Below are positions 17,691-51,285 of a stretch of DNA of 64,000 bases, piece after piece; position 1 is the stretch's first letter, and the number at the start of each line of letters is the position of its first letter. Below the pieces are notes generated by a model. That model searched no databases and had not been told where the DNA came from. It saw nothing but the letters and a program-made list of their open reading frames with translations. Both the position numbers and the translations under genes were made by a program. Source of the stretch: Candidatus Dojkabacteria bacterium (lineage in GTDB: Bacteria; Patescibacteriota; Dojkabacteria; B142; OLB20); contig DAOMOX010000002.1 of assembly GCA_035444565.1 (NCBI GenBank), forward strand, positions 105,335 to 169,334, given 5' to 3'.

Positions 17691-17730
17691 TGAAGATACT
17701 GAATTCCTCAATCTCTCAATTTCTACATTT

Positions 17731-22000: not shown

Positions 22001-22094
22001 AGTGAATTTAGAGTTCAGAGTTACTTAATCTCTAAATTTCTACATCACTACATTTTCCTTCCACATTTCTGAATTCCTAAATTACTTAATTTCT

Positions 22095-22283
22095 TCATTT
22101 ACTAGATGGTGGCCAAACAACCGCCTGTAACCCAGGATCATTTAAATCTTCATCAGTGACGTGCCCTCCTCCACCCGCATCTTCAGCATCTCGCACCTCT
22201 GCCAGATTTTCAGCATCCCCTGGAGTAACTTGGAGTCTTTCTCCGTCATAACCTAAGGGTTTTGGTGTCGGATTTGTTTCCAT
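22095..22283 (-). CDS. Small acidic hypothetical protein (locally GC-rich ORF)
   Basis: ORF only; noticeably higher GC than surroundings. Confidence 0.2.
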   Translation of the reverse strand: METNPTPKPLGYDGERLQVTPGDAENLAEVRDAEDAGGGGHVTDEDLNDPGLQAVVWPPSSK

Positions 22284-22329
22284 ATTTTAATTTCTTAATC
22301 TCTAAATTTCTTAATTTCTTCATTTTCCT

Positions 22330-24109: not shown

Positions 24110-24149
24110 CCTTGATAAATATCTTAGATAAAGTGTTGGAATTTGGAAT

Positions 24150-24260
24150 TATTCATTCTGATTTTTTCCAACCTGCTCTTCATCCAATTCCATATACGGG
24201 AATATCTCTTTTTGTATCGTGTAATGATTTTCTCGATTCTTGTTTCTGGGTTAGTTAAAA
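24150..24260 (-). pseudogene. Decayed duplicate of the 3' end of the DCD-domain gene (frameshifted)
   Basis: About 100 bp nearly identical to 24680-24780 (…IEKIITRYKK…), with a 1-nt indel destroying the frame. Confidence 0.55.
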
Positions 24261-24660
24261 TTCCTGAGGACATTCTTCCTTAATTTATACATACTTATAA
24301 CAAATAAGTTCCTAGTTCACTAGGAACTAGGAACTTTCTTAGTTTTCCATGAAATACGTTTAAACAAGTGTATGGGTTTGAATTTTGAACTTCTTCATAT
24401 CTAAATTCCTACATCTTTTAATTCCTTAATTTCTACATTCCTAAATCTCTTCATTTTTCCTTTTGTAATTTCTCTAAACTTCTAATCCTTTTCTCTGCTT
24501 CTTTTTCTTTGCGTAGGATTTCTTTAGGATCATCAGTACTCTTTATCAACTCAATTTTTCCTAGTTCGATATCATTAATGAAGTCTTTCATGGAGTTTGA
24601 ATAACTTAAGTAATTTGAAGTTATATTAATTATATGCTTTTATTATATTTTTTTCTGAAT

Positions 24661-25035
24661 TCAGGATTCTGCATTCTGAATTTTTTCAACCTGCCCTTCA
24701 TCTAATTCCATATACGGAAATATCCCCTTCTTATACCTAGTAATTATTTTCTCGATTCTTGAGAATGGGATGGTTTTGGTTTCGGGGAGTAATTCGAACT
24801 TGATTTGTGATGGGAATTTGTCTTGCCATGCTCCTTTTACTAAATATTCTCCACCTTCTGATACTGGTTTATAAGGTCCACTGAATTCATAAGTTGAAGT
24901 GTTGTAGAGAAATAGCAAATCAGCAGGAGTAATACTTTTCACAAGTTGTAAATAATCTCGTTCTTCTCCGAAGAGCATTCTTTCAAACACTTCGTCTTTG
25001 GTTTTTGAGTTGCAGCGGAAGATGAAGGCTTTCAT
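24661..25035 (-). CDS. DCD (development and cell death)/EVE-like PUA-fold domain protein
   Basis: AFIFRCNSKTKDEVFERMLFGEERDYLQLVKSITPADLLFLYNTSTYEFSGPYKPVSEGGEYLVKGAWQDKFPSQIKFEL matches the DCD consensus (FxCN..T....LFG...LFLYN....L.G.Y.A.S.G......AW...FP.QV). Immediately downstream of hsdR, same strand. Confidence 0.55.
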   Translation of the reverse strand: MKAFIFRCNSKTKDEVFERMLFGEERDYLQLVKSITPADLLFLYNTSTYEFSGPYKPVSEGGEYLVKGAWQDKFPSQIKFELLPETKTIPFSRIEKIITRYKKGIFPYMELDEGQVEKIQNAES

Positions 25036-25056
25036 TTTTTATTTAAGTTAATAAAT

Positions 25057-27900
25057 TTACCACTCAAACACCTCCACAATGTTCTGAATCGCATTTCTTA
25101 CCCTATCAACGATGCTTTCACGCTCTAATATTCCAGTATTTGAATTTTTCAAATCAATAATTTCTTGCCCCAGAGGTAGTCTTTGAGTATATAGATATTC
25201 ACCAACAAGACTTTCAAATTTTTCGATTGGAATATCCTCTGTCTTTGCAATGTCACGAAGTGCTTGGGATCTCTCACTTTGCCAAAATTCCTGGAATGCT
25301 TCTTCCACATGACCTGATGTTGATATTGATGGTAGGCTCTCTTCTATAAATTTCTTGATTAACTCTTTCTTTTTTCTTAATTTAATATCTCTATCGAATA
25401 ATTTAAGAATATCTTCCTTCTTAATATCCCTAACGACATCAGAACTTATCTCTTTAAGTCCAGAAATCAAGAAAATGATATAGTCAAAATTAATTATATC
25501 TCGAGAGGTTAACTCTAGCTCGAAATCAATTTGATCTAAAATCGATTCTTTTTCACTAGCGTCGTTTTTAATACTCTCGTAAATATCCAGATACTTACTT
25601 TGGTAATCACTAAACTCTTGTTCTGTAATTCCTAAATCCTCGAAGTTAAATTCTGCGAAAGTTTCTATAGAGGATTTTATTCTCAATAAATCTCTGAAAA
25701 TTTTCACGAAGACTGCCTTTTCTTGTTCTCCCTGCAGTCGGTCGACAGAATCTACAGTTGGAACTCTAACTAACAAATCTTTAATCTTAGACTCAAATTC
25801 TTTGGCCTGTTCTTCATATGGTCTTTTGAAAACAATTTCTTTAGCGTTCTCGTCACCGAATAACGCCAAAGCTTGATCCGTTTCTAATTTCAAATTTCTG
25901 AACGAAACAATATTTCCGTGAGGTTTATCTGAATCATAAAGTCGGTTTGTTCTAGAATATGCTTGAATCAAACCATGATATTTCAAGTTTTTATCAACAT
26001 AGAGTGTGTTCAAGAATTTACTATCAAAACCAGTTAAGAACATATTAACTACAAGTACGAGGTCTACGTCATTCTTTTTAATACGTTCCTGCAGGTTTTT
26101 ATAATAGTTATAAAATTTCTCAGTTGAGTAATTTGTTTTATAAGTTTCATTATATTCTTTGATACAATTTTCTAGGAAGTCTCTGGAGTGTTCATTTATT
26201 GGTTCACCTTCGGTTGGCATATCTGGCTCTTCTGAATACATATCTATACTCTCATCTTCATTTGCACGATATGTAAAAATAGTCGCAATTTTGAAGTCCT
26301 CAGGCTTTTTCTTATTGAACAAAGTATAATATCTCTTCAACACATCGATACTGGGAGTTGCAAATAGTGCATTAAACTTTCCATTTTTTGTTTTTCTTTT
26401 CCAATCCGCGAGAATATAGTCTGAGATTTTATTCAATCTATCGTCACTCTCTAAGACTTCTTTGGTATTAATTCCTTCTACAAGTGCATCTGCAAATATA
26501 TCCGCATCAAGTGTGTCTTGATCTCTCTGTGTATACCTCCCAACGTATTCCACAGCGAAACCAAGCACATTGTTGTCATCGATTGCATGAGTGATGATGT
26601 ATTTGTGCAGACATTCGCCAAAGACGTCTTTCGTAGTGACTCCACCTTGGCTGTTTTCTGCAAAAATCGGAGTACCAGTAAACCCAAACAGCTGAGCCTT
26701 GTTGAAGAATTTCTTAATCCTCGCATGAGTAAGCCCAAACTGTCCTCTGTGACATTCATCGAAAATTATTACCATCTTTTCATCTCGGAGATTTTCAAAC
26801 TGCTTCAGATACGAATCTCTTGATATTGCTATGTCTAATTTCTGAATAGTGGTGACGATGAGCTTACGATTTGGATCTTTGAGTTGCTTTACTAAATTTC
26901 TGGTTTTATCGGTACCATCTACCGAGCCAGCGGAGAATGAATTAAACTCTTTAGTAGTCTGAATATCTAAATCTTTTCTATCCACTACAAACACAACCTT
27001 CTTAATTTCTGGCAATTCTGATAAAACTTGACTGGTTTTAAACGAAGTAAGAGTCTTACCAGAACCAGTTGTATGCCAGATATATCCATTTTTGTTTGAT
27101 TCTTTCACTCTTTTCTCGATAGCCTTCACTGCATAGTACTGATATGGTCTCAAAACCATAGGTATAGACTCTGCCTCCGCAAGTACAGTGTATTCTGAAA
27201 TCATGCTAGATAAAGTACATTTCTCCAGGAACGAATCTGCAAAGTCAGCGAGTTTAGTAATCTTGTTATTATTTACATCAGTCCAGAAAAATGTTTGTTG
27301 GAACTTTTGCTTTGGGTTGTTAGCGAAATATTTGGTATTTACACCGTTACTAATCACAAAAATCTGCACATATTCGAAAAGCGTCCCGGTGAATGAGTGC
27401 TTGTGATAACGCTGTATCTGGTTAAACGCTTCTTTCATTTCCACACCTCTACGCTTTAGCTCTATATGAACTAGTGGAAAACCATTCACAAGCAAACTCA
27501 CATCGTATCTGTTTTGATATTTCTCAGTTTGGGTAATCTGGTTTGTAACTTGGTATTCGTTTTTACACCACTGATCTGTGTTAAAAAATCTGATGTAGCA
27601 ACTAGTACCATCATCTCGAGTAAGTGCAAATCTATCTCTGAGTGTCTTCGCTTTCTGAAATCTATCGCCTTTGTTTAGATGGTTTCGTATCTTAGTAAAC
27701 TCCAAATCCGAAAATTCGGTCTTGTTGAATTTTTCGAGCTGAACTTTCAGATTATCTTCCAGTGCTTGCTTGTCTAATATGCTAACTCGCTCAAAGCCGA
27801 GATAGCCTAGCTGGGCGATAAGTTCATTTTCAAGTTGTTGTTCGGATTGATGCATATTTTGTTTTCTATTCCTTATTAAATACCGATAGCCTTTCAGCAA
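25057..27900 (-). CDS. hsdR: Type I restriction enzyme R subunit
   Basis: WHTTGSGKTLTSF Walker A, IFDECHRGQFG DEAH box, 947 aa SF2 helicase-nuclease architecture. Confidence 0.85.
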   Translation of the reverse strand: MLKGYRYLIRNRKQNMHQSEQQLENELIAQLGYLGFERVSILDKQALEDNLKVQLEKFNKTEFSDLEFTKIRNHLNKGDRFQKAKTLRDRFALTRDDGTSCYIRFFNTDQWCKNEYQVTNQITQTEKYQNRYDVSLLVNGFPLVHIELKRRGVEMKEAFNQIQRYHKHSFTGTLFEYVQIFVISNGVNTKYFANNPKQKFQQTFFWTDVNNNKITKLADFADSFLEKCTLSSMISEYTVLAEAESIPMVLRPYQYYAVKAIEKRVKESNKNGYIWHTTGSGKTLTSFKTSQVLSELPEIKKVVFVVDRKDLDIQTTKEFNSFSAGSVDGTDKTRNLVKQLKDPNRKLIVTTIQKLDIAISRDSYLKQFENLRDEKMVIIFDECHRGQFGLTHARIKKFFNKAQLFGFTGTPIFAENSQGGVTTKDVFGECLHKYIITHAIDDNNVLGFAVEYVGRYTQRDQDTLDADIFADALVEGINTKEVLESDDRLNKISDYILADWKRKTKNGKFNALFATPSIDVLKRYYTLFNKKKPEDFKIATIFTYRANEDESIDMYSEEPDMPTEGEPINEHSRDFLENCIKEYNETYKTNYSTEKFYNYYKNLQERIKKNDVDLVLVVNMFLTGFDSKFLNTLYVDKNLKYHGLIQAYSRTNRLYDSDKPHGNIVSFRNLKLETDQALALFGDENAKEIVFKRPYEEQAKEFESKIKDLLVRVPTVDSVDRLQGEQEKAVFVKIFRDLLRIKSSIETFAEFNFEDLGITEQEFSDYQSKYLDIYESIKNDASEKESILDQIDFELELTSRDIINFDYIIFLISGLKEISSDVVRDIKKEDILKLFDRDIKLRKKKELIKKFIEESLPSISTSGHVEEAFQEFWQSERSQALRDIAKTEDIPIEKFESLVGEYLYTQRLPLGQEIIDLKNSNTGILERESIVDRVRNAIQNIVEVFEW

Positions 27901-29431
27901 GACTTCTGTCTACACTTTTTTGAGGTGAAATAAATAATTGAATACCTTCTGCATCTTTAAAAAAACATTGTTTACTTTCAAAAACTGATAGCAATAAGGG
28001 ATCATCTGGCATCATTTTCTTTATTTCTTCCTTCAAATATATATAGTCCAAACCTAAAGACATGTACTTCGCAAAATATATGTACCATATTAATTCATAG
28101 ACAGACTTTAACTGCATAGCTTTATCAATTTCTTTTAAAATAATCTTTTTTATATCTTCCTTTAAAGGTTTATGGATTTTACGATATTTAATAAAAACCA
28201 ATTCAATAATCGACAAGATATGGCATAAGGCCTTTGGAGATTCACGTTTCAACATTATTAACAATGAGAATGTTTTTATAATCTCTTTATATTCCATCTC
28301 TTTACTCTTCTTTGTGAATTGTATTTTCAATCCGTACGAATCATTAATTAACTCGCATAAGAACTTTTCAATAATGCTAGTCCCTCTATACTTCTGATGA
28401 ATATCTAAAACTCTCAATAATGTCAATTCGAAAGTTTTAAAGGGGATGTATTTTTTGTGTTTAAGTGAATAATTATAATAATCTCTATCGTGTTTCCTAT
28501 ATAGCCCTTGAGGAAGTTTTTCAACGCTAGTCTTTTCCTCGTTGATAAGCAGATTAAATTCTTCTAATTCATCCCTTAAAGTTTTAATTATTAAATTTGC
28601 ATCATCGTCGTTCATACATAAAAATCTATAGTCGTCTTTAAATCTTGTTGCAATAAAGTCAACATTTTCATTTTTAAGTTTCAAAGATACCTGCGTGTCA
28701 ATCCTAGATAATATTATCTCAGCTATTAAATCGCTTAATGCTGATCCTATAGGTATACCGTTTGTCCTAAGTTCATTAGAAAGCATATAACATCTATCTA
28801 TTTTTGAACCAAATAGTTTCTGCTCCTTTATGTCGCGCAAGGATTGATCACGTCCATGAATTGCCCACCCAATGCTGTGAGTGTATATTGATTTGTAAAA
28901 ATTAGTAATATCTGACTTTATAATATAATTGTACTTGTATACTTCTGTTATTAAGTCCTTCTCAGCCATTTCAATCCACTCATATATAAGTCTACCTGAC
29001 CTTAGTTTCCCAACCACACCTTTGGTGGTCGTATCTAAAGGAATAGGAAAGCTATATGAGTAAACCCTTAAGTCTTTGTCAAACAATATCTTTTTTATCT
29101 CTTCCCAGTTCTGATAAAGATGAAAAACAATATTATGGTAGTATTTTGGATTTTGAATGGAGAACACCCGAGAGGCGATGTTACTTTTTGGGTAAGCAAC
29201 CTTTACCAATTTATCAGACTTATTAGAATTAAACGCATTCTTTTTAAGAATAAAATTGCTAATCGTGTAAGAAGGTGGCAACACATTCTGCTCAGGGTAA
29301 TATCCTTCATTTAAAAGCCAGAGTGCAATGTCCTCTTTAGGTATTAAATCTAAATACCTCTCTGTTTCTTTTTGATGTTCTATAATAAAGTTATTCAAAT
29401 AAACATTTTTTGCATCACCCCTTTCTTCCAC
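27866..29431 (-). CDS. Reverse transcriptase of Abi/defence-associated (UG-like) type, embedded between hsdS and hsdR
   Basis: RT motif A region KSDITNFYKSI, motif B NGIPIGSALSDLIAEIIL, motif C variant TRFKDDYRFL (FKDD instead of YxDD). Both ends overlap flanking hsd genes. Confidence 0.6.
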   Translation of the reverse strand: MEERGDAKNVYLNNFIIEHQKETERYLDLIPKEDIALWLLNEGYYPEQNVLPPSYTISNFILKKNAFNSNKSDKLVKVAYPKSNIASRVFSIQNPKYYHNIVFHLYQNWEEIKKILFDKDLRVYSYSFPIPLDTTTKGVVGKLRSGRLIYEWIEMAEKDLITEVYKYNYIIKSDITNFYKSIYTHSIGWAIHGRDQSLRDIKEQKLFGSKIDRCYMLSNELRTNGIPIGSALSDLIAEIILSRIDTQVSLKLKNENVDFIATRFKDDYRFLCMNDDDANLIIKTLRDELEEFNLLINEEKTSVEKLPQGLYRKHDRDYYNYSLKHKKYIPFKTFELTLLRVLDIHQKYRGTSIIEKFLCELINDSYGLKIQFTKKSKEMEYKEIIKTFSLLIMLKRESPKALCHILSIIELVFIKYRKIHKPLKEDIKKIILKEIDKAMQLKSVYELIWYIYFAKYMSLGLDYIYLKEEIKKMMPDDPLLLSVFESKQCFFKDAEGIQLFISPQKSVDRSLAERLSVFNKE

Positions 29432-30552
29432 TTCTCAGCCTGGGTAATGCGTTGGTTGGTTATATTAATTAGATCGTCAATTGACGATAGGAAGTCTGCG
29501 ATTTTCTGTTGTTCTGATAATGTAGGTTTACTAAATATCATTTTCGACAAGATAGAAAAGTGTCGCTTGTAGCCCTCTGGTTTTATTTGATTTGATTGTA
29601 GTAGGTAGAACAAAAACTTTAAATTATCTTCATTGCTTTTAGCCATCAATATTTTAGTTCCGTCTGCTCCGATAATGAAATCGAAATTGATATACTTTAA
29701 AATTGTAGTATGATCCCCAAAAACAATAACCGGAGTCGATTCAAATACCTTGTTTGAATTATTTGAATAACCGGCAATTAAGCTTTTTCCTTGATCAACT
29801 ACCTTATATTCTCCTGTAGCTATAATTTCAGAGCTTTTGATTTGGAAGTACTTAGGAGATGTACTAACTAATATTTCATTAAACCTCTTCTCCTCCCACT
29901 CCGGATAATCACTCCCATCCTCATCTTTAAACCTTATCTCCTGCGAAAAGATTTTCTGCATCATCCCTTTTTTGTATTTCTCCTGTGCTTCTTTTTGCTT
30001 TTTTAGATTCTCAATCCAGTCGTCTACGGAGGTGAGGAAGGAGGCGATTTTGCGTTGTTCTTCGGATTTCGGGAATTCGAATTTCAACGATCTTAAATCA
30101 TTTGTGTAGATTCTCGTGATAGTCGTTGAATTTAGTTTGTCCCATCTACAATTAGTTAGCAGAAGGAAAAGAAAATCATCATCAACAACTTCATTATCGT
30201 TATCGATCCAGACAATGTTAGAATCTTGATAATAACTATCACGACCATCGAATTGAACGCACTTACCGATCGTTCCACTACAAGTGATTAAAGTCTGTCC
30301 TTTTCTTGGAAAGTTATATTGTAATTTATAGTTCTTAAATAAATTTTTATTGATAAATGCATCAGCGACACTCCCTAAGGTGCCTATTTTATAGAAAGGT
30401 ACTTCTCCAACTTCCTTAGTTTGGTGGGCAAAGATTCTTTTGCACATTTTGACAGAACCTAAGTCTCCTAATTTTCTTTCCTCCCACTCACCAGAGAATT
30501 CGGGGAAGCGGAGGGTTGGGGTTAGAGTTGTTTTGGTATCAGGCCTATTCAT
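29395..30552 (-). CDS. hsdS: Type I restriction-modification specificity subunit
   Basis: N-terminal LRFPEFSGEWEERKLGDLG, two TRD halves, conserved ...SEEQRKIASFLTSVDDWIENL / LSEQQKIADFLSSIDDLI repeats. Confidence 0.8.
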   Translation of the reverse strand: MNRPDTKTTLTPTLRFPEFSGEWEERKLGDLGSVKMCKRIFAHQTKEVGEVPFYKIGTLGSVADAFINKNLFKNYKLQYNFPRKGQTLITCSGTIGKCVQFDGRDSYYQDSNIVWIDNDNEVVDDDFLFLLLTNCRWDKLNSTTITRIYTNDLRSLKFEFPKSEEQRKIASFLTSVDDWIENLKKQKEAQEKYKKGMMQKIFSQEIRFKDEDGSDYPEWEEKRFNEILVSTSPKYFQIKSSEIIATGEYKVVDQGKSLIAGYSNNSNKVFESTPVIVFGDHTTILKYINFDFIIGADGTKILMAKSNEDNLKFLFYLLQSNQIKPEGYKRHFSILSKMIFSKPTLSEQQKIADFLSSIDDLINITNQRITQAEKWKKGVMQKMFI

Positions 30553-30854
30553 CTATTGCAATATTTGTAAATTTCAAAAGCTAAGTTTAAGGCCGCTACT
30601 ATCACAGCTAGAAGTCCAACAAGAACTCCTGCTTTACTAATTTTATTAAGTGCTCTAGTTAACTTTTCAGAGGATTCATTTGCCTCTTTGATGTTTTTGT
30701 TTAGCTCTACAAGCACTCCACGCATCTTACCCAATTCTTCATTGACTCCACTCAATTTTTTCGTTAATCCAAGATAAGTAGGTATCTCTGAGAAATATAG
30801 AGTCATATTTTCAATTAATTTTTCAGTTTTGGGATCATTTATGTCTACCTTCAT
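30549..30854 (-). CDS. Small protein with C-terminal TM helix, inserted between abiEii and hsdS
   Basis: ORF; coiled-coil-like N-terminus plus VLVGLLAVIVAALNLAF helix; unknown function. Confidence 0.35.
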   Translation of the reverse strand: MKVDINDPKTEKLIENMTLYFSEIPTYLGLTKKLSGVNEELGKMRGVLVELNKNIKEANESSEKLTRALNKISKAGVLVGLLAVIVAALNLAFEIYKYCNR

Positions 30855-30861
30855 GAATACT

Positions 30862-32184
30862 TCATTTCAATAAATCATCAAATTCACAATTTAAAAGTGC
30901 TGATTTTGTCAGAACTATCTGTTCCGATCTATTTAATCTATCTGCTGTAAGACGTATAAGCCTTGTGGTCAATCTATCACCCACAACTTCTCTATTTGAT
31001 TTTGAAATATAATCCTCAATCTTTTTATGAAACAACGTTGCATATTGCTTTATCTTGTCACTCTTACCGGACTCAGTTATCTTTTCGACAACTTCTCGAG
31101 ATATATCAATTGTAATATCTCCATCCGCGAAACTTATCCAATAATCGCTAATATTAATTATAAACCAAACTGACTTTCCTTCTTCCGTCTTGTACTCATA
31201 TGCAAAAGTGTAATTATCAGTAAAGAATTCTGTTTTAATTTCTATCCTTTCAAGTTCTTTAATCCGGTGTATAGGATAGGACTGAACCAATTTTAAATAA
31301 CTCTCATGCCAGTTAGTCAGCCAATTAGTAATATAGTTATTATCAGTAAACAGCGGAATTAGATCCTGCTCAAGATTATCTACTTCCACTGTATTCATTT
31401 TTATAGTCAATTCATCAAACAGTTTCTGTAGATTAGAAGTGTTCACACCTTTGGCTTTTAAATAATCTAGATCAGGTATCGCCTTTTTATCCATATACCA
31501 GAGCAAGTCATATATATCCCTACCTTTTTCATTAAATGTTTTGCTCCCAATATTTCTCTCTCCTCTTAAAAAGATAGCTGCTATTTTACTTGCCATAAGA
31601 TTCGACATATTGTAAGTCTTGATTACAAACGATAACTGATCTCTACTTATCGGAATTTTTTCTGTTGTTGACTTTTCTGAATTGAATTGGTTCAAGTCAA
31701 TCTTTAGATGAATTTGGTCCGAAGCATGACCCAATCCTAGTTTTTCTCCAATATGGAAATTCAATCGGAGTCCACGAACACCACTAATTTTTACGGTCAT
31801 AAATGTCGAATCTGTTTTATACTGATTTGAAAAGTACGACTCAATTTCGGATTTCAGCTCTTCCAGAAAATCCTGTGTGACTTCGGTTTTAATTTCAAAA
31901 TCTAAATCTACCGACATTCGATTAAGTCCATGGCAGATACGTAAAGCTGAACCTCCATACATAACCCATTTACTGTATTCTGGATGATGGTATATGAAAT
32001 TTAGAACATAAAACTGTAATTCCTCTTTTAGCACATTCCTTTGTATCTCGACACTAACAGATTCAGATGCTTTTACTTCTTCTAGTTTTGTCTTTAGTTT
32101 TAATAATACTTGATTATTCATGTTCTTTATATTTCTCGACCATTGAATGAAACTGATCCTGCTCCTTCTTTTCCATTTCATCAA
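30862..32184 (-). CDS. abiEii: AbiEii/AbiGii-family nucleotidyltransferase toxin (type IV TA / abortive infection)
   Basis: MYGGSALRICHGLNRMSVDLDFE matches DUF1814 signature GGTAL..hg.R.S.DLD. Probable true start at internal Met about 21 codons downstream. Confidence 0.65.
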   Translation of the reverse strand: MMKWKRRSRISFIQWSRNIKNMNNQVLLKLKTKLEEVKASESVSVEIQRNVLKEELQFYVLNFIYHHPEYSKWVMYGGSALRICHGLNRMSVDLDFEIKTEVTQDFLEELKSEIESYFSNQYKTDSTFMTVKISGVRGLRLNFHIGEKLGLGHASDQIHLKIDLNQFNSEKSTTEKIPISRDQLSFVIKTYNMSNLMASKIAAIFLRGERNIGSKTFNEKGRDIYDLLWYMDKKAIPDLDYLKAKGVNTSNLQKLFDELTIKMNTVEVDNLEQDLIPLFTDNNYITNWLTNWHESYLKLVQSYPIHRIKELERIEIKTEFFTDNYTFAYEYKTEEGKSVWFIINISDYWISFADGDITIDISREVVEKITESGKSDKIKQYATLFHKKIEDYISKSNREVVGDRLTTRLIRLTADRLNRSEQIVLTKSALLNCEFDDLLK

Positions 32185-32752
32185 AATCGATACGTAGTTC
32201 TTCTAATAAATTACTTATATCTCTAACCTCAATTGATCGAAATCTATTTGTCCTAAAATACAGCAAGTCGAAAAGGGCTTTAGAGGGGGAGGCAATATAA
32301 AAATCAAATTTATTATCTGATTCAGAATCTCCTTTAACCAACAAATAATCAGAAAAGATCTTTTCATTGATAGACTTATAAAAGAATGTACCGATTTTTG
32401 TCTGATAATCTCTGGTTACCTTTTGTGTTACAGAGGTAATAGCACCGATTTCCTCAGTAGCTAGAGAGTAATATTGCAATGCCGTCCACGAGCTTATATA
32501 TGATGGTTTCCTCAACACGTTCGCCAAATAGTACAAATACGTTACATCATTTTTATTTTTCTCATAGAAATCCCTAGAAACGTACAATTCTCTTCTTAGC
32601 TGGATAATATCTTTGCTTTTTATATACCTACTAATATAAGTATCTATAGTCACATCTTCTAAAGCATACTGCTCAGCTATTTGCACCAAAACAGCCTTAG
32701 TAAAATAAGGTAACGGTTTCAAGTTTTCGATTAGATTTTTCTTGCTTTTCAT
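32114..32752 (-). CDS. abiEi: AbiEi-family antitoxin/transcriptional regulator
   Basis: Size, position directly upstream of AbiEii and ...YISSWTALQYYSL... AbiEi-like segment. Confidence 0.5.
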   Translation of the reverse strand: MKSKKNLIENLKPLPYFTKAVLVQIAEQYALEDVTIDTYISRYIKSKDIIQLRRELYVSRDFYEKNKNDVTYLYYLANVLRKPSYISSWTALQYYSLATEEIGAITSVTQKVTRDYQTKIGTFFYKSINEKIFSDYLLVKGDSESDNKFDFYIASPSKALFDLLYFRTNRFRSIEVRDISNLLEELRIDFDEMEKKEQDQFHSMVEKYKEHE

Positions 32753-32806
32753 ATATATGACACTATTGTATCAGATATAAAACATAGATTCAATACACAA
32801 ACATAT

Positions 32807-34384
32807 TTAAAATGGACTCTCAATCCCTAATTCTTTAGTAAATACTTCAATTTTCTTTTTTAAATTCTCTTCTTCACCTGCCAATTCTTTCGCTTCTTTC
32901 GCCACAGCTTCGATATCTATTTCTGGCTCTTCATCGAATGTATCGACGTATCTTGGGATATTTAGATTAAATTCATTTTCTTCGATCTCTTTAAGTGTCG
33001 CTTTGTGTGAATATTTCTCTATTTCTTTTCTGTCTTTGTATGTTTCAAATATTTTGGATATATTCTCATCGGTTAGTTTGTTTTGATTTTTACCTTTTTC
33101 GAACTCTTTCGAAGCATCGATAAACAAAATATCATCGTCTTCTTTTCTGCATTTTTTGAATACCAAAACTGTTGCTGGAATAGATGTCCCGTAGAACAGA
33201 TTTGCTGGAAGACCGATTACTGCATCGAGATAATTCTGTTTCTCTATGATATATTTCCGAATCTGACCTTCTGCTCCAGATCTGAATAACGCTCCATGTG
33301 GAAGGACAACTGCCATCGTTCCATTGTCAGCCAGATGATAGAGCATGTGAGTGACAAATGCATAGTCAGCTGCACCTTTTGGTGCTAGACGACCGTATTG
33401 AGAAAATCTTTCATCATTCGCCAGTACAGGATCTGTATCACTTTTCCATTTAGCTGAAAAGGGCGGATTTGCCACCACCGCCTCTGCTTGCAAATCTTGA
33501 TGCATGTCATCCATAAGAGTGTCCCCCTGCCTGATGCTAAACTTATCAAAGTGAAGTCCATGTAAAATCATATTCATCCTAGCCAAGTTGTATGTTGTGG
33601 GATTGAGCTCTTGACCAAGATAACTTGTAACATTTGTGAAATCTCCGACACGCAAAAGCAGTGAGCCAGAACCACATGTTGGATCATAAACCGATTTAAG
33701 CCTGGTTTTACCTTCTGAAACAATTTGAGCCAATAACCTCGAAACCTGCGCTGGCGTGTAGAATTCTCCGCCTTTCTTTCCTGCACCGGAAGCAAATTCA
33801 CCTATCAAATATTCATATGCATCACCTAAAAGATCACTTTTCGAGTCTTCAATTTTAAAATCAATCCCTGCCAAAGCAGTTAATACTTCTACTATCACCT
33901 CGTTTTTCTTGTTTTCAGACTTACCAAGCTTTGATGAAGATAAATCCACATCATCAAACAATCCTTTGAAATCATCTTCGCTGGCTGTTCCCATTGAGGT
34001 TTGCTCTATTTTATTCAGAACATTTTTCAAATCTTCAAGTATGAACTTGTCCACTCCATTAATTTCACCATTTCCAGCTTTGACTAAATATGAAAACAAC
34101 TCTCTAGGCTTCAAGAAGAATCCAAGATATTCAGTTGTAGCTTTTTGCACAGCTTCTAGGATCTTTTCACCTTCTTGTGTTTCTTCATCAATTTCGTCAA
34201 ACTTGTACTTTTCGCCCTTTAAAAGTTCCTCATCAACATATGCAGACAGTTTCTCCGAAAGATATTTGTAGAAAATAAAGCCAAGAATGTAATTTTTGTA
34301 TTCATCGGCATTCATTTTTCCGCGGAGGATGTTTGCTACTGACCAGAGTTGCTTCTCGAGGAGTTGCTTGTGTTCATCAGCCAT
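32807..34384 (-). CDS. hsdM: Type I restriction-modification N6-adenine DNA methyltransferase subunit
   Basis: DPTCGSGSLLL (motif I) and VANPPFSAKW (motif IV NPPF). Confidence 0.85.
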   Translation of the reverse strand: MADEHKQLLEKQLWSVANILRGKMNADEYKNYILGFIFYKYLSEKLSAYVDEELLKGEKYKFDEIDEETQEGEKILEAVQKATTEYLGFFLKPRELFSYLVKAGNGEINGVDKFILEDLKNVLNKIEQTSMGTASEDDFKGLFDDVDLSSSKLGKSENKKNEVIVEVLTALAGIDFKIEDSKSDLLGDAYEYLIGEFASGAGKKGGEFYTPAQVSRLLAQIVSEGKTRLKSVYDPTCGSGSLLLRVGDFTNVTSYLGQELNPTTYNLARMNMILHGLHFDKFSIRQGDTLMDDMHQDLQAEAVVANPPFSAKWKSDTDPVLANDERFSQYGRLAPKGAADYAFVTHMLYHLADNGTMAVVLPHGALFRSGAEGQIRKYIIEKQNYLDAVIGLPANLFYGTSIPATVLVFKKCRKEDDDILFIDASKEFEKGKNQNKLTDENISKIFETYKDRKEIEKYSHKATLKEIEENEFNLNIPRYVDTFDEEPEIDIEAVAKEAKELAGEEENLKKKIEVFTKELGIESPF

Positions 34385-34499
34385 TGTTGTAATTATAAAT
34401 TAATAATAACCTAGATTATACATGCAAGACTTATACATAATCCACATACAAACATTTCTAATTAGTTCAAAACTCCGAATTAAATATTTCTTATAAATC

Positions 34500-35543
34500 T
34501 TAAGATGCTATAAAATTATCATTAACAGTATCTATCAACAAAACTATCTGATTTGCCATATCTTTTATAACTATATCTTCAGTAACATCAAGTTTTGGAA
34601 ATATAGGAAAATAAATCCGATCTTTCTGAATTATTTTTGTATCAATAAGTCTTTCAGTTTTATGGCAACTTTCTATAAGTTGAGGTGTCGTGGCCCAGTT
34701 CTTGCTATCTTGGAAACCTATCCAAAAAGGCGTATCCAAATACTTAGACCAAAGATCCATACTGAAATATAGTGTTAGTGCAAGCTTTTCATAATACCCA
34801 AACCTGACGTAACCATCTCTTTGAGGTGTCGCTCGCAATTTCTCTGTCATAAATTTACCATTATTCCTTAGCTCTTCGACAAGGTTATCAATTAAATCAC
34901 AGTATGACATTAATCTTCTGGGATACTTAGGGGACAAATCATCACTTTGTATTGGAAGGAAAGAGTTATCATCAATAACTTTACAAAAACCGATTAATTG
35001 ATCAATGTCTGATACTAAGCTTGTTGAACCTTCCTGTACTAAGTTGCTCTTAATAATAGCTAGGATTTCATCCCACGTTTTTATTAGAATATATTTATTT
35101 TCAGGCAATTCAATTAACCTATCATTTGCACTTTTCTCTGGTATTTCAATTTTTACAACCCTATTTTTGATTTCTGAATACAAAGATCGACTTCTCAGTG
35201 TTGGGCAAATAAATAAAAGTACGGATGACTCGCCAATTCTTTTCAGATACTCTAGCGGTTGATTCTCAGTCAATGATGCCCAAAACTTAGCTTCGATGAT
35301 TAATCTTTCATTTTCATCCGTGGTTGTTACTCCAGATATATCCGGACGTTCTAAATTTTCCCCGATTGATTGGGCAATATATTTTAAATCTGGAAGATTA
35401 ATCCCGGTATCGTTTGAGATTACATTTTGTAGCGCATCTCTAGCACCTTTTGATTTATTCAAAATATAAGATAATCCGGTTGATGCAATATCTTCCTGTG
35501 ATCCTCTGATACGTGAATAAAATTGTCCTAGTAGTGATTCCAT
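34500..35543 (-). CDS. Hypothetical protein with possible PD-(D/E)xK-like signature (PDISGV...ERLIIEAKFW)
   Basis: ORF directly upstream of hsdM on same strand; D...E-A-K spacing only. Confidence 0.3.
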   Translation of the reverse strand: MESLLGQFYSRIRGSQEDIASTGLSYILNKSKGARDALQNVISNDTGINLPDLKYIAQSIGENLERPDISGVTTTDENERLIIEAKFWASLTENQPLEYLKRIGESSVLLFICPTLRSRSLYSEIKNRVVKIEIPEKSANDRLIELPENKYILIKTWDEILAIIKSNLVQEGSTSLVSDIDQLIGFCKVIDDNSFLPIQSDDLSPKYPRRLMSYCDLIDNLVEELRNNGKFMTEKLRATPQRDGYVRFGYYEKLALTLYFSMDLWSKYLDTPFWIGFQDSKNWATTPQLIESCHKTERLIDTKIIQKDRIYFPIFPKLDVTEDIVIKDMANQIVLLIDTVNDNFIAS

Positions 35544-35653
35544 GAATGTGTTTGATAATAATTATTAAGTAAAACTCACAGTTCTTTTATCATTTAATTC
35601 CTCAATTCCTAAATTTCTCAATCTTTACATTTTATTTCCTCATTCCTCAATCT

Positions 35654-36385
35654 CTAAATTCCTAAATCCCTCAATTTCCCTTGATACCCACACCACTCAC
35701 ACCCCTCCCTATACCCCGGAATCTCCTCCCCCATCAAACAATCCTTAATCTCTCTCAACTTCCCCTCAATCCAGCTGTCGTCTCCGGTGTATGGAATTAC
35801 GGAGATTTTGAATTCTAGTTTTGCATCGAAGGCTTGTTTGTCTTTGATGCCATTGCAATAAACAAAGTAACCCGTATTCGATACTTCAAAACCATTTCTT
35901 CGTAGTAACCATTGATAGATTTCCATTTGTCTCTTGTATGACATTTGCCAGTCTGCATCGATATTTACCTCCTCTTTTTTTGAAGTTGATTTGTAGTCCA
36001 CTACTATTAATTCTCCTTTTGGATTCACCCAAACATCATCAACTGCTCCTGCCACCAGAAGATTGGTTTCTTCGTGTAGGTATTGAACACCTTGGAAATT
36101 TTCTCTCCAGATGTCGATATCTTTGTGAGTGAAAGGAATTGCATCAATTCCATATGTGGTCATCAGTGGATGAGGGTCACCCTTGATACGATGGGTATCG
36201 AATTCTTGCTTCAATAAGTGGTCAACCGCAGAATTCAAACTAAACGGAGGACCTGAGGGCTGCTTTAATCCAAGTCTTCTATCCAGATAAAAACAATGCG
36301 GACAATTAATGAAGAATTCTATTCCCGATCTGCTGATTTTGTAAGCTTCGTCTTTGAGTGGATCAAACTGCCCTCGATAAGCCAT
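35654..36385 (-). CDS. Cas4-like / RecB-family PD-(D/E)xK exonuclease with Fe-S cysteines (stand-alone, no CRISPR nearby)
   Basis: N-terminal CPHC, LLVAGAVDDVWV (motif II), LIVVDYKST (motif III DYK), QMEIYQWLL (QxxxY), C-terminal C..GCEWCGY cysteine cluster. Confidence 0.55.
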   Translation of the reverse strand: MAYRGQFDPLKDEAYKISRSGIEFFINCPHCFYLDRRLGLKQPSGPPFSLNSAVDHLLKQEFDTHRIKGDPHPLMTTYGIDAIPFTHKDIDIWRENFQGVQYLHEETNLLVAGAVDDVWVNPKGELIVVDYKSTSKKEEVNIDADWQMSYKRQMEIYQWLLRRNGFEVSNTGYFVYCNGIKDKQAFDAKLEFKISVIPYTGDDSWIEGKLREIKDCLMGEEIPGYREGCEWCGYQGKLRDLGI

Positions 36386-36472
36386 ATTTGTGGTTTCTAG
36401 GTTGAAGTTGATTATACTATTATTAACTATTCAAAGAAAGTAATCACCAGTAAGAATTTTGGTGATTGAGAC

Positions 36473-37192
36473 TTATACCTTAAAGTAATCCATCTTCTGA
36501 GTATTTTTACACGTAGGGAAGTTTGTACATCCCCAGAATATCCCATATTTTCCTTCAACAATCTTCATCCTGCTGTCGCATTTGTTACAGAACTTGACTG
36601 AATCCCTATTAATTAATGGTCTGAGAGGAATTTCTACATTATATTTTTTTATTATACTCACTAGTTCATAGCCATTTATCAATCTAATAGGTCTTTCACT
36701 TGCGAAACGCTTTGCATCTAGCGTGAAAATATTAGTAGTTACAAAATATGCATTGGCATTATTCAGTTTATCTACTGTGGCACCATAAAAATCTCTCATA
36801 TCACTAAGAGTTACAACTCGGTTTATGTACTTTTTACATTGTATATAGTGAGTTTTTTCCCCTTTTTTTACAATTATATCTATTCCTCCATCCCTCAGGC
36901 CACCAATCACATTTGTCGTGTAGCCTAATTGTTGAAATATTTTTCCAACAAACTCTTCAAATTCATGTGGTGAGAGATTTTTAATTGCCGAGAGCATTTC
37001 TTTATCACTTTTCCAAGTGAATTCTTTCCTCTCCGGAGTGCTTTGCTGTTGGGTGGGGATAGTGGGTAAAGACGAACTTACAGGTGGTGCTTTCTCATCT
37101 TTAGTAGCACTCAGAGCTTTGATAAGGAAAACTACGAGAGAAAGAATTACTACTAGATAGATACTACAAAACAGAAAAAAGAAATTCTCCAA
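36473..37192 (-). CDS. Mrr-cat-type restriction endonuclease domain protein with N-terminal TM and C-terminal topoisomerase-type C4 zinc finger
   Basis: FEEFVGKIFQQLGYTTNVIGGLRDGGIDIIVKK...HYIQCKKY (Mrr_cat D..D.K), C-terminal CNKCDSRM...CTNFPTC. Confidence 0.55.
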   Translation of the reverse strand: MENFFFLFCSIYLVVILSLVVFLIKALSATKDEKAPPVSSSLPTIPTQQQSTPERKEFTWKSDKEMLSAIKNLSPHEFEEFVGKIFQQLGYTTNVIGGLRDGGIDIIVKKGEKTHYIQCKKYINRVVTLSDMRDFYGATVDKLNNANAYFVTTNIFTLDAKRFASERPIRLINGYELVSIIKKYNVEIPLRPLINRDSVKFCNKCDSRMKIVEGKYGIFWGCTNFPTCKNTQKMDYFKV

Positions 37193-37310
37193 TGCTATGT
37201 AAAATATTTATAAATACATAGCTACATAGTACAAAAATTTATTCAAGATTTCCAAAATCGATATTTCCGAAATAAAGTATTAAAAATGGGGGTGTTACCA
37301 GTTCTGAGAA

Positions 37311-37865
37311 TTATTGATAGTTTTTGTTACTTGAAATTATTGATTTAACATCTTTCGCTACATCAAATACAAATTCCAAGTCTTGATCGTTATAGAGTTT
37401 ATCAATTCTTTTAAGATTTCCAATATGAAGCCTATTTCTAAAAGATCTTACTCTATCCAGGTTACTTTCTAGTTCTGGTTCAATTATGTGATATTTAGAA
37501 CAATAGTCTATAACTCTGTTAAAGTCCAATTTATTGATATCGATAGGCATTTGTTCACGTATTAATCCAACTACTTGTTTGTTCGGACTTATCTTGTAAA
37601 GCATTCTAATGTCAGTGTATTTCCAAGAATCTTTTGTTTTAATATTTCCAGAATTTACCTCATATTTAACTATGATCATCAATAGAGCCTCTATAATTGA
37701 AGCGGTGTGAATAATTATTGTTTTCCTAAAACTACTCAATGTAATAAGAGAATCGTCAAAATCCTTCTTCAACAATAAAGTAGAAAGTACAAGTATATGA
37801 TTGAAAGTAATATTGAGGTTAGTGCGTAGAATCGGATCTTTAATTTCAGGGAAATTATTTATCAC
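37311..37865 (-). CDS. Hypothetical protein (weak HEPN-like R-x6-H: RSFRNRLH). GTG start in ORF track
   Basis: ORF at head of the minus-strand defence gene string. Confidence 0.3.
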   Translation of the reverse strand: MINNFPEIKDPILRTNLNITFNHILVLSTLLLKKDFDDSLITLSSFRKTIIIHTASIIEALLMIIVKYEVNSGNIKTKDSWKYTDIRMLYKISPNKQVVGLIREQMPIDINKLDFNRVIDYCSKYHIIEPELESNLDRVRSFRNRLHIGNLKRIDKLYNDQDLEFVFDVAKDVKSIISSNKNYQ

Positions 37866-38034
37866 CTTCGACCATCATATCCACTAATGAAGGGAATCCG
37901 CCCTCTCTAAGGTAATCACCTAGCTTTGTGTTTGGGTCGACGGATAATTCGATACCATAAAGCTCCTTTAACTCGGAAACTTTAGTATTTCTGGTAAGAA
38001 TTATCTGGTTTTTGTCTTTTTTAACTTTTCTCAT
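37855..38034 (-). CDS. Unannotated 59-aa ORF overlapping start of 37311-37865 gene (possible small partner/antitoxin-like)
   Basis: ATG at complement 38032-38034, TAA at complement 37855-37857; MRKVKKDKNQIILTRNTKVSELKELYGIELSVDPNTKLGDYLREGGFPSLVDMMVEGDK. Below the 60-aa threshold of the supplied track. Confidence 0.25.
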   Translation of the reverse strand: MRKVKKDKNQIILTRNTKVSELKELYGIELSVDPNTKLGDYLREGGFPSLVDMMVEGDK

Positions 38035-38295: not shown

Positions 38296-41200
38296 ATGGG
38301 GGACTTAGGCTTAGATAATAATCGCTGGTTGATTCCGAGATTGGACTATTTACCTGACGTTAATCCTTGGGATATGTTTAATCGAGAACGATTGCGCGTA
38401 TTTGGGGAGATAGTAGATAACTATTTTGTTCCACAATGCAATTTTCTTAGTTATGAAGATACAGAACAAGATTTAGATTATTTTGTTCAGAAATATCCAT
38501 TTTTATTAGATGGACAAGGAAGCCTTCCTCAATTGCATAGGAAAGTTTACGAACTTCAATCAAATGGGGTTTCTACACTAACAATTTTTGATATTTGTAT
38601 AGAATTTGACTGTCTTGATAAACTCGGCCAACAATTTCTAGAAAATCCACCACCTCATTTAGAATTAGGACTTAAAATTACAAACTCTGCAGAATATAAT
38701 TTGATACAACAAGCAGTAACAAGAAATCACCTACCTCAAGTTTTAAATTTTCTAAATTCTCTAATCCCCTTAAAAGAACCTGAAGGTGAAGAATACTTAA
38801 AACATCCAACACTCTGGTTAGAGCTACTAGGGAGTTCTTCAATGTACCGACCTAATGCAGTTATTCTGGCTGCTGAAAAAGGCAGTCTAAATCATCTAAC
38901 TGAAACAATCAAGTATTTGTCTACTATAGATGAAAACAGAACATTAAATTTATTCGAGAATGAATTTCAATTAGGTATGGGCGAATCAAATTTCTTACAT
39001 CATCTATTAAAAGGAAAACAATTGCATTCATCATTGATTGAGATGATTCAACAAGTTTATTCATCAAGCACTTATCGTCTTAAATCATTGCTTAATCAAA
39101 AAGACTTCTATGGGAATATTCCGACTCATGCCATATTGGGTCCTTACAGAGATTTTATTATACCATTAATAGATTTCGCTTATACGGAAGATAATGAAGG
39201 TTTAAAGTTGTTGCTAGAAAAATTTGGAATCTCAAATTTAATTAGGACCAGTGCCACGAGTAATTTACTACCAGGTCTAATAACTAAAACTTATAGTGAT
39301 GCAACTGAAATACTCTTAGAATACGTAACACCAGTCATCCATGACATTCTTAGAAATATTTCAATCACAGGAAACTTGGAGTCATTTGAAATATTGAAAC
39401 TAGCTTATTCATCTCATCCGGGAGAATTATTTAAAACATTTATTGAATCAGAGTCAAATGCTGAACTACTAATACATGCTGCTCAAAATCATCATGTAGC
39501 ATCTGCTAGGGAATACATAAAATACATATTTAAAGACCATCCAGATTTATTGCAAGAATATTTACATCGACCAGATTCAAATACTATCGCACAAGAAAAT
39601 GATACATACCAAATCGCATTTTTAAGATACCTTTCCTCTCCTCATGATTTCATTCCAGCAATGGAAATTTTGGAACAAGCATATTTAACTAATGATCAAA
39701 ACGGCGAGAACTCTCAAAAATTATCTGGGAAGAATATAATTCAACCTTTTTTAAAAGTAGCTTCGACTAATCCTGAAATCTTAACTTGTGAAGTAATTTC
39801 TAGGTTCAAATTGATATTAGATAGAAGTAATTACACTTATCTAATTAGTAATCCAGATGTAAGAGAAGTATTAGTAAATTATGAAATAGAACATATAGTA
39901 CCACGTTCAAATACATTTTTTCGAATGGGTATAGATGAACAATATTCAGGAGATATGGCACGTATTGCAGTAGAAGCATATACAGAATATTCTTATTTTA
40001 AACAAGTACTTGAATCCTACCCTACTATACTATCAAAAGTATTAGGGACTGAGCTTATAGTTAATCTTGGACCTACGGAAAACGAGGCAAGAAGTGCCTA
40101 TGATAGAGAAATTTTAGACATAAGTAAGAAATTTATATCGTTATTAGAAAATCATTTTAATATCAGAGGAAACTTTTACATTATTGACGAATCTGAACAA
40201 GATCAAGACATTCAGCCAACTGAGGATCTAATATCTCGCCTATTTCCGACTAGAAAGCATCAATTTTTTGTAAACGAAAAATTAATCACAGACATTTTCG
40301 AACAACCTCCTTTAACAAGGCTTGGTTTTCTTGCAAGAAGAGCATTATTGGGGGGAGACTTCCCTGATAGGCCAGAGGACAAAGCTTTGAGAAGTATTTT
40401 CCCAGAGGATTTTACAATGTTTTACAAGCCTGATAACGACTACTTGCCTATACCAATACTCCCAGAACACTGGGCAGAACTTGCTTTAAAGTTATCTCAT
40501 TGTACTCCTAATTTAGAAAATGGATCTTTCCTAGATAGCATACAAGTTATTTCTGGTATTGTAGACTCATTAAAGGAAATTGCTAAATTATCGGAAATAC
40601 CACTGACCGACAGGTTATTAACTGACATTGAAAGTTTTGCAAAGTTGTTAGGTAGATATTATATCAATACAGTTTATGCAACTGATAATACAAAGATTAA
40701 ATCCAAGGAAGAGGTAGATAAACACCCAATTATTATAAAAATCTTAGATCCAGATGATAACGAAGATTTGGCAGATTTTATAAGATATCGATTTGCAGGG
40801 GATCCCATACAAGATCTCAAACTTACGGCTCAATACAAACATTTGCCATCCGAAATTGGTTTGATGGCTTACGATCCACATACAACCGTAGCCCTCTTGT
40901 ATGAAAATCGTTCGGATGTAACTATTTCACTTGAAGAAGAGCATCCAATGGATAATGATTTTATGGATGAAATTTCAAAAGAAGAATTAAGGTATAACAT
41001 TGAACGATTAGCTTTTGGTTATGTAACAATAACTGAGGGTACATTTAGAACCTCAGAAGAGGAAGATGCTCGTCGTATAATCATCCTAGGAGACGCCGAG
41101 ATGGGATCTTACCGCAGCAATGCTAATGTTGCAGAAATCTTATTAACTCTCGCACGAACTCTAAAACAAAAAACAGGTCTGGATGTGATAATTTCTACCG

Positions 41201-47950: not shown

Positions 47951-47952
47951 TT

Positions 47953-51279: not shown

Positions 51280-51285
51280 ATCACT

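Follow-up and report, generated by a model that had tools for sequence, protein, structure and literature searches.

Organization of the gene string

A 64,000-nt stretch of the genome of Candidatus Dojkabacteria bacterium, a member of the candidate phyla radiation (CPR), carries a type I restriction-modification (R-M) operon with defense-type genes lodged between its hsd genes (assembly GCA_035444565.1, contig DAOMOX010000002.1, positions 105,335 to 169,334; hereafter the window, numbered from its first letter). Twelve consecutive co-directional open reading frames (ORFs) occupy the minus strand at 24661-37865, with the coordinates first given in an earlier note made from the letters of this DNA. 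In the direction of transcription, they encode a 184-amino-acid (aa) protein, an Mrr-type restriction endonuclease, a Cas4-like nuclease, a 347-aa protein, HsdM, AbiEi, AbiEii, a 101-aa transmembrane (TM) protein, HsdS, a reverse transcriptase (RT), HsdR, and a DCD protein. Profile searches against Pfam and PADLOC uphold every functional call of the note (Mrr/Zn-ribbon, Cas4-like, HsdM, AbiEi, AbiEii, HsdS, RT, HsdR, and DCD). The hsdM and hsdS genes enclose abiEi-abiEii-TM, and hsdS and hsdR enclose the RT gene, every one of them on the minus strand.

Inspection of start codons changes the picture at the junctions. The overlaps of 37 nt (hsdS/RT) and 35 nt (RT/hsdR), taken by the note as translational interweaving, are products of calling the longest ORF from its first possible start. 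The hsdS/RT junction is likely a 4-nt overlap (TTGA), in which the RT start TTG at 29398 is shared with the hsdS stop; the alignment of RT homologues (506-516 aa) begins at this codon, and the gene call in a related operon, L083, uses the equivalent start. HsdR begins at ATG 27855, which is Met16 of the long ORF and lies 10 nt past the RT stop; the HSDR_N Pfam model starts two residues after this methionine, and independent gene calls give 932-933 aa. For abiEii, the most likely start is ATG 32121, yielding an 8-nt overlap with abiEi and a product of 419 aa, as in L083 and a further relative, L093.

With the corrected starts, the junctions from hsdM to the DCD gene measure +54, -8, +7, -4, -4, +10, and +21 nt. 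Tight packing is confined to this eight-gene part of the string (about 9.7 kb). Farther upstream, the four junctions consist of AT-rich gaps (118, 87, 110, and 115 nt) that contain TATAAT hexamers, so the description of the string as mostly overlapping was wrong. A single terminator-like hairpin with a 13-bp stem (24306..24336, minus strand) is found on the minus strand between 24.0 and 38.5 kb; because it lies downstream of the DCD gene, the segment from hsdM to DCD is operon-like, and the genes upstream of hsdM may not be part of it.

The DNA comes from a metagenome-assembled genome, and chimeric assembly or binning, or decaying insertions that inactivated the R-M system, could in principle produce such an arrangement. 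The segment abiEii-TM-hsdS-RT-hsdR recurs at 99.93% identity in an independent ENA activated-sludge contig, demonstrating that the gene order is no assembly artifact. The hsdS-RT-hsdR order is present in two JGI contigs and one Logan contig as well, and the hsd, abiE, and RT ORFs are all full length with intact catalytic motifs. An origin by artifact or decay is therefore highly improbable. Exact protein matches assign the window to metagenome-assembled genomes of Candidatus Dojkabacteria, which overturns a provisional assignment of the host to Bacteroidota made from the A-rich leaders.

The type I core and the DCD gene

The core is predicted to be a conventional EcoR124-like (type IC-like) operon, hsdM-hsdS-hsdR. 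HsdM (32807..34384, minus strand) is a type I N6-adenine methyltransferase matching Pfam N6_Mtase (3e-110) and HsdM_N (3e-23) and carrying the NPPF and DPTCGSG motifs. HsdS (29395..30552, minus strand) possesses two target recognition domains (TRDs), with Methylase_S (5.5e-39) matching in two stretches. HsdR (25057..27855, minus strand; long ORF to 27900), the 932-aa EcoR124-like (type IC-like) restriction and translocase subunit, is composed of an N-terminal PD-(D/E)XK nuclease, a superfamily 2 translocase, and a C-terminal assembly domain, with D...ELK, TGSGKT, and DECH motifs. Its Pfam matches are HSDR_N (3.8e-38), SWI2_SNF2 (7.1e-62), T1R_D3-like (1.3e-57), and EcoR124_C (2e-56).

At 21 nt after hsdR, the gene for a stand-alone DCD protein (24661..25035, minus strand) closes the operon-like segment. 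The protein, EVE-like with a PUA fold and predicted to read modified bases, matches Dev_Cell_Death (PF10539, 1.2e-21) over residues 3-119 of 124. A DCD gene also stands 3' of hsdR in the related operon L081, and a GmrSD/SLFN gene takes that place in L083. A degenerate copy of the DCD 3' end (24139..24256, minus strand), 76-84% identical to 24657-24775, is situated ~520 nt downstream of the intact gene and beyond the terminator-like hairpin. This relic is probably the scar of an earlier cassette replacement. Between the DCD gene and its relic lies a 46-aa ORF (24451-24591); L081 has a 45-aa ORF in the same position after its DCD gene.

The AbiE cassette and the small membrane protein

The slot between hsdM and hsdS (the M-S slot) holds three genes. 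The first, abiEi (32114..32752, minus strand), encodes the antitoxin/regulator of an AbiE type IV toxin-antitoxin (TA) pair; it matches PADLOC AbiEi over its full length (2.5e-35) and no Pfam model, so that the call rests on PADLOC. Directly downstream, abiEii (30862..32121, minus strand; long ORF to 32184) encodes the 419-aa toxin, a DUF1814 nucleotidyltransferase (Pfam AbiEii, 1.9e-23; PADLOC, 1.8e-29) with the GGS...DLD motif in the DUF1814 domain and a C-terminal extension of ~125 aa. AbiEii proteins are GTP-dependent nucleotidyltransferase toxins of the AbiE/MenT family.

The third gene (30549..30854, minus strand) meets hsdS in an ATGA overlap. Its 101-aa product has a coiled-coil-like N-terminus and a single C-terminal TM helix at residues 75-93, the hydropathy peak. 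A 100-aa homologue, 68% identical, follows abiEii in L093, and a DUF2513 gene occupies that position in L083.

Cargo slots and exchange tracts in related operons

Contigs bearing HsdR homologues were sampled as a backbone series; close homologues number roughly 8000, many of them in Patescibacteria. Across the backbone relatives, the HsdR proteins are 75-97% identical. Four of these backbones (a contig designated P0130, L088, L089, and L090) have empty slots, their hsdM-hsdS-hsdR genes being separated by at most 8 nt or overlapping slightly, and five carry other cargo. In L087, the order is hsdM-HEPN_AbiU2-hsdS-312aa-hsdR; in L085/L086, hsdS-329aa-HEPN_RiboL-PSP-hsdR; in L081/L082, hsdM-Fic-97aa-hsdS-RT-hsdR-DCD; in L083, hsdM-abiEi-abiEii-DUF2513-hsdS-RT-hsdR-GmrSD/SLFN; and in L093/L094, Cas4-like-347aa-hsdM-abiEi-abiEii-100aa-hsdS-332aa-DUF2806. 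The M-S slot accordingly holds Fic, HEPN_AbiU2, or AbiE, and the slot between hsdS and hsdR (the S-R slot) holds HEPN_RiboL-PSP with a protein of unassigned family, other such proteins, or an RT. The 329-aa protein of L085 and the 332-aa protein of L093 are homologous to each other.

Changing co-oriented defense-type genes thus occupy the internal M-S and S-R slots of the operon as well as a 3' position. Cargo inside hsd operons varies between homologous backbones. The suggestion that the R-M genes serve as a carrier for defense cargo is thereby well supported: in one HsdM/S/R backbone, the same two slots are either empty or filled by unrelated cargo, and the window itself is a recombination mosaic.

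The mosaic is resolved by sliding-window identity against two relatives. Comparison with L083 reveals 100% identity over most of hsdM and abiEi (about 34100-32300), followed by an abrupt fall to ~75% in abiEii, no similarity in the small gene, 91-98% in TRD1 of hsdS, no similarity in TRD2, and 66-80% in the RT gene. Comparison with L081 reveals 77-90% identity in hsdM, then 100% over 29500-27500, covering the hsdS 3' end, the whole RT gene, and the first ~350 nt of hsdR, and 100% again at 25900-25100. The protein identities follow the same tracts, with the RT 99.8% identical to that of L081 vs 72% for L083, and HsdR 97% vs 93%. HsdS is itself composite, having TRD1 in common with L083, a unique TRD2, and a conserved C-terminal region in common with L081.

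The break within the AbiE pair falls at the gene junction (30862-32752, aligned to 3150-5040 of L083): abiEi is ~100% and abiEii ~75% identical at the DNA level, corresponding to protein identities of 99% and 80%. Exchange has thus affected the toxin and antitoxin genes of this type IV pair separately.

Tracts of 100% DNA identity beside tracts of 70-87% indicate that modules were exchanged by recombination. The pattern bears the signature of recent kilobase-scale homologous recombination, in which the conserved hsdM 3' end, the conserved hsdS regions, and hsdR served as homology arms, and these tracts lend direct support to the carrier idea. Two further observations point to cassette exchange, namely the DCD relic and the kinship of the GmrSD/SLFN gene of L083 with the 3' gene of a second hsd operon in the window (64.5% identity over 465 nt).

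The surroundings of the relatives were also recorded. The hsd operons of L087 and L088 adjoin type IV secretion/conjugation genes (TrbC, TrbL, TraG-like, and type IV secretion system pilin), and those of the P0130 contig and L089 adjoin serine recombinases. Such neighbors suggest that mobile elements carry the backbone itself in CPR bacteria.

Transcription of the operon-like segment

Co-transcription from hsdM to the DCD gene is plausible, given the tight gaps and the lack of any terminator-like hairpin until 24336-24306. The 54-nt hsdM-abiEi gap contains a candidate abiE promoter (32765..32793, minus strand), a sigma-70-like TTGAAT-17-TACAAT with a TG extension that matches the consensus in AT-rich DNA. 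A near-palindrome, recognized by sequence, lies within the same gap.

The genes could instead be independent head-to-tail transcription units in a defense island, merely adjacent, in which case they would not be co-regulated and the hsd genes would play no special part. The sigma-70-like match before abiEi fits such a layout, as do the known autoregulation by AbiEi, the AT-rich gaps of 87-118 nt with TATAAT hexamers between the upstream genes, and the classical possession by type IC hsdR genes of their own promoter. Against it, the gaps from abiEi to DCD are at most 21 nt or are overlaps, so that promoters would have to sit inside the preceding gene, and no terminator-like hairpin interrupts the string. 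Moreover, the cargo of several relatives sits exactly at the two hsd junctions and is always co-oriented, matching the published co-orientation of 96.7% for embedded genes. We consider mere adjacency unlikely.

The UG14 reverse transcriptase

The only gene in the S-R slot encodes a 510-aa RT (27866..29398, minus strand; long ORF to 29431) of UG/Abi class 1, group UG14. It matches Pfam RVT_1, and its match to PADLOC RT_UG14 spans model positions 4-492 of 493 (E = 1.9e-180, 598.9 bits). The next-best PADLOC profile, Drt6, reaches 211.9 bits, followed by Drt4 and AbiP2; the retron and Drt2 profiles score far below UG14. Alignment of 25 homologues identifies D163 (motif A) and D255-D256 (FKDD) as invariant, together with a GR[ML]IYEW motif. 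The embedded RT keeps all family-invariant residues and has no extra domain.

RT-core sequence matches place Abi-P2 (7r08), DRT4/UG15, Drt3b, and AbiK as the best solved relatives. These are class 1 UG/Abi enzymes, a class typified by a C-terminal alpha-helical repeat domain, that carry out untemplated DNA synthesis from a protein primer. In an alignment with DRT4, the priming residue Tyr125 of that enzyme falls opposite Ile142, three residues from the invariant Tyr139, and we make no priming claim.

UG14 was predicted to be a defense gene in 2022 from its enrichment in defense islands. No Rfam match was found between 23.5 and 42.5 kb at E<=0.1, and the 4-nt overlap upstream and 10-nt gap downstream leave no room for a non-coding RNA (ncRNA). 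The arrangement of a retron or of a class 2 defense-associated reverse transcriptase (DRT), in which an ncRNA serves the RT as template, is thereby excluded.

The neighborhood of the RT was surveyed in 80 UG14 loci from species-representative genomes. Clustering of 826 ORFs within 6 kb yielded no recurrent family except the RT itself, and among the 82 same-strand genes at most 300 nt away from the RT, 77 Pfam families are represented, each by three members at most. The nearest relatives outside the lineage (64% and 61% identical) stand beside unrelated genes, outside hsd operons. The commonest immediate neighbors are hsd genes: in ~7-8 of the 80 loci, the RT directly follows hsdR, hsdS, or hsdM, in some cases with junctions of 4-6 nt, and none of these loci has the S-RT-R order. 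Scanning metagenomes with this one RT protein, using search patterns that proved too specific, recovered no other locus. Because no neighbor is conserved across the 80 genomes, the RT looks like autonomous cargo, and UG14 appears to behave as an autonomous single-gene module, often but not necessarily beside R-M genes.

A functional tie between cargo and restriction enzyme has to be weighed here. The RT and/or AbiEii could be latent on HsdMSR as guardians, freed when a phage anti-restriction protein disables the enzyme. PrrC, embedded in a type IC locus, works in this way, and the window HsdR is EcoR124-like and hence type IC-like. The S-RT-R order is common to operons with RTs only 72% identical, the junctions suggest translational coupling, and UG14 RTs directly follow hsd genes in the ~7-8 other loci. 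However, PrrC occurs almost exclusively embedded, a pattern that UG14 does not follow: only ~7-8 of 80 loci have adjacent hsd genes, and in ~90% of loci the RT has no conserved neighbor. Elsewhere, the slots of this backbone are empty or hold unrelated cargo, and the RT retains all family-invariant residues with no added domain. DRT4 and DRT6, the closest characterized groups, are triggered by a phage DNA-binding protein and not by R-M inhibition. A guardian role is thus disfavored, chiefly because the RT stands alone elsewhere and the backbone carries empty slots or other cargo, and we give it little credence.

Interpretation and proposed mechanism

Taken together, we judge it probable that the locus is a type I operon in which two junctions and the 3' end serve as cargo slots, with independent cargo and no new joint mechanism. 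Several points weigh against this interpretation. Co-transcription is deduced from spacing, and a sigma-70 scan returned 38 sites vs 58.7 expected in shuffled sequences, with a consensus that may not be that of CPR bacteria. The S-RT-R order is kept in two operons whose RTs differ by 28%, and the rank of hsd genes as top immediate UG14 neighbors (~7-8 of 80) points to a possible functional link with type I systems. Finally, the defense role of UG14 is a prediction, and its presumed mechanism is extrapolated from relatives at 20-30% identity.

Two of these points, the order kept despite 28% RT divergence and the repeated occurrence of UG14 RTs flush with hsd genes in unrelated phyla, would be accounted for if the RT had become a functional accessory of the type IC-like enzyme, either as a PrrC-like guardian or through a single-stranded DNA (ssDNA) product that interacts with HsdR. 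We hold such an accessory role to be improbable. A lesser variant would combine AbiEi, AbiEii, and the tail-anchored membrane protein into a three-component AbiE subtype with a membrane effector.

Under the preferred reading of slots with independent cargo, one main transcript would run from upstream of hsdM to the hairpin near 24.3 kb, and abiE would also be read from its own AbiEi-autoregulated promoter. HsdMSR would restrict unmethylated DNA as the first defense line, and AbiEii and the RT would act independently as second-line abortive-infection modules. By analogy with Abi-P2, AbiK, and DRT4, the RT would polymerize ssDNA from a protein primer and with no template, and this product would turn toxic once a phage factor stabilizes it. 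The DCD protein may extend or complement targeting to modified DNA. Embedding would keep the genes inherited and expressed together and make cassettes easy to exchange; the operon may also be stabilized by the TA pair. The upstream nuclease genes (Cas4-like with the 347-aa protein; Mrr with the 184-aa protein) were acquired separately and form the remainder of the defense island.

Relation to known systems

The arrangement had been described as unusual, which does not hold in kind, since embedding in type I operons is both described and frequent and DCD/EVE genes beside type I systems are known. A systematic guilt-by-embedding study (Payne et al. 2024, bioRxiv 10.1101/2024.01.29.577857) found embedded genes co-oriented in 96.7% of cases and mentions just one embedded DRT, of type III. 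DarTG2 lies between hsdS and hsdR in enteropathogenic Escherichia coli (EPEC), at a site that the authors term a potential recombination hotspot (PMC12255303), and TgvAB of Vibrio cholerae VPI-2 (PMC11411939) and the Campylobacter rlo genes are also embedded in type I R-M loci. The window shares with these cases co-oriented Abi, TA, or defense cargo between hsd genes, the hsdS-hsdR hotspot, and cargo that varies among homologous backbones. It differs in the simultaneous occupation of two slots and the 3' position, in its CPR host, in exchange tracts that are directly visible, and in its S-R cargo, a UG14 RT, for which no literature report was found.

In EcoprrI, the anticodon nuclease PrrC is embedded in a type IC locus and guards the R-M enzyme. 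Both loci place an abortive-infection effector in a type IC-like hsd operon as a second line behind restriction; unlike EcoprrI, the window has no PrrC-like ATPase or anticodon nuclease, and UG14 and AbiE are mostly found outside hsd operons. Like AbiK, Abi-P2, DRT4 (UG15), and DRT6 (UG12), the window RT is a single protein of ~510 aa with a class 1 core containing xxDD, no ncRNA, and a defense-island context. It differs from them in belonging to group UG14, with a predicted defense role, and in the offset of Tyr139 by three residues from the DRT4 Tyr125 position. The AbiE genes conform to known AbiE systems in their bicistronic abiEi-abiEii order, 8-nt overlap, and DUF1814 nucleotidyltransferase with GGS...DLD, and depart from them in the ~125-aa AbiEii extension, the small tail-anchored protein that follows in two operons, and the discordant divergence of AbiEi and AbiEii.

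Stand-alone EVE/DCD readers are associated with type I R-M systems (Bell, Wolf & Koonin 2020, PMC7641849), and a small DCD-only protein encoded right after hsdR agrees with this association. DCD is rare in prokaryotes and occurs mostly in archaea and hyperthermophiles (PMC7641849), whereas the host here is a mesophilic CPR bacterium from activated sludge. CPR bacteria are reported to have few defense systems per genome but a high density per Mb.

The locus is clearly a natural example of a known habit, the placing of defense genes inside restriction operons, and represents no new kind of system or mechanism. Specific to it are a UG14 RT in the S-R slot, kept in one Dojkabacteria lineage, the filling of both slots and the 3' position, and a clear record of exchange. 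At least nine related operons with one backbone and differing cargo form a natural series that provides a nucleotide-level view of type I genes as homology arms for cassette swapping. The embedding adds context evidence that the UG14 RT is a defense gene. A genome-reduced CPR bacterium gives ~40 kb to stacked defenses, including two cargo-bearing type I operons, and the locus has value for illustration and for deriving test constructs.

Upstream nuclease genes and other features of the window

Upstream of hsdM, the 347-aa protein (34500..35543, minus strand) belongs to a widespread family that has no Pfam model and matched nothing in any profile library searched; it comprises an N-terminal PD-(D/E)XK-like domain and a C-terminal alpha/beta domain. 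The adjacent Cas4-like PD-(D/E)XK nuclease (35654..36385, minus strand; Pfam PDDEXK_1, 1.3e-12; PADLOC Cas4, 1.1e-9) has cysteine pairs at both ends, and its gene keeps its place beside the 347-aa gene in L093. The Mrr-type PD-(D/E)XK endonuclease (36473..37192, minus strand; Mrr_cat, 7.5e-27; Zn_ribbon_Top1, 2.6e-10; PADLOC mREase_IV / PDC-S02) is type IV-like; a topoisomerase-type Zn ribbon forms its C-terminal part, and the hydropathy profile reveals a hydrophobic segment at the N-terminus.

The 184-aa protein (37311..37865, minus strand) represents a small uncharacterized family, with 210 representatives found and no match in Pfam, PADLOC, or NCBIfam. E59 and R143-N144-x-x-H147 are invariant, and R140 is invariant or nearly so. 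Single-sequence AlphaFold2 prediction gives an all-helical fold at low confidence (pLDDT 55). Weak DUF4145/HEPN Pfam matches occur in 5 of 66 family members; hhalign comparison with two HEPN cargo proteins was negative, and a profile search against the PDB returned nothing relevant. A HEPN-like identity is at best a guess. A 59-aa ORF of no assigned family (37855..38034, minus strand) shares 11 nt with the start of the 184-aa gene, and the numbering of NCBI proteins has room for one additional protein between the 184-aa and 1037-aa genes; the product of the 59-aa ORF may act as a small partner to the 184-aa protein.

Compared with L093, the window has an additional segment of 5.2 kb (36.4-41.6 kb), where the genes for Mrr and the 184-aa protein, the 59-aa ORF, and a divergently oriented orphan of 1037 aa are located. 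The absence of this segment from L093 indicates that the upstream part was acquired separately. The single 13-kb supra-operon first proposed was therefore an overstatement: the string comprises at least three separately acquired modules, and the Mrr/184-aa segment is missing in a close relative. The 1037-aa ORF (38296-41409, plus strand), divergent from the string, has no match in Pfam, PADLOC, NCBIfam, or PHROGs, and its 90% cluster consists of Candidatus Dojkabacteria proteins only.

A second type I R-M operon with cargo lies at 48889-60090 on the plus strand, just after tRNA-Cys/tRNA-Leu (47880-48038), which are preceded by an HD gene (46317-46685) and a MazG-like gene (46754-47080). It consists of an EcoEI-type hsdR (48889-51279), hsdM (51286-52716), a gene for an 896-aa AAA_21/AAA_13 ATPase embedded between M and S (52713-55403), hsdS (55393-56568), a DUF2130 gene (56586-57791), and a gene for a GmrSD_N+SLFN_AlbA_2 protein (57712-60090), the relative of the L083 3' gene noted above. 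This operon is followed by genes for a LexA-like repressor (minus strand, 60094-60744) and for a protein with a SMODS domain (plus strand, 61610-62668), which together may form an element resembling a cyclic oligonucleotide-based antiphage signaling system (CBASS).

Two repeat types are also present. A degenerate 8-nt tandem unit, AATTTCTN on the plus strand and repeated (G/T)AGGAAT(T) on the minus strand, forms arrays at 17694-17761, 21211-21276, 22011-22105, 22273-22338, 22964-23013, 23583-23634, 24388-24479, and 35580-35684. Many intergenic regions hold such arrays, among them the gap between the Cas4-like and 347-aa genes and the stretch downstream of DCD, and similar ones occur in L081. 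A 52-nt GC-rich hairpin element, GAGAGAGATCCCCTCCCGTCATGTTTTAAGACGGGATCGAGGGG, resembling repetitive extragenic palindromic (REP) sequences or miniature inverted-repeat transposable elements (MITEs), is found as a tandem pair at 42386-42489 by a resistance-nodulation-division (RND) pump gene and as a single copy at 17636-17687, 24.7 kb from the pair; the element is also present in L081.

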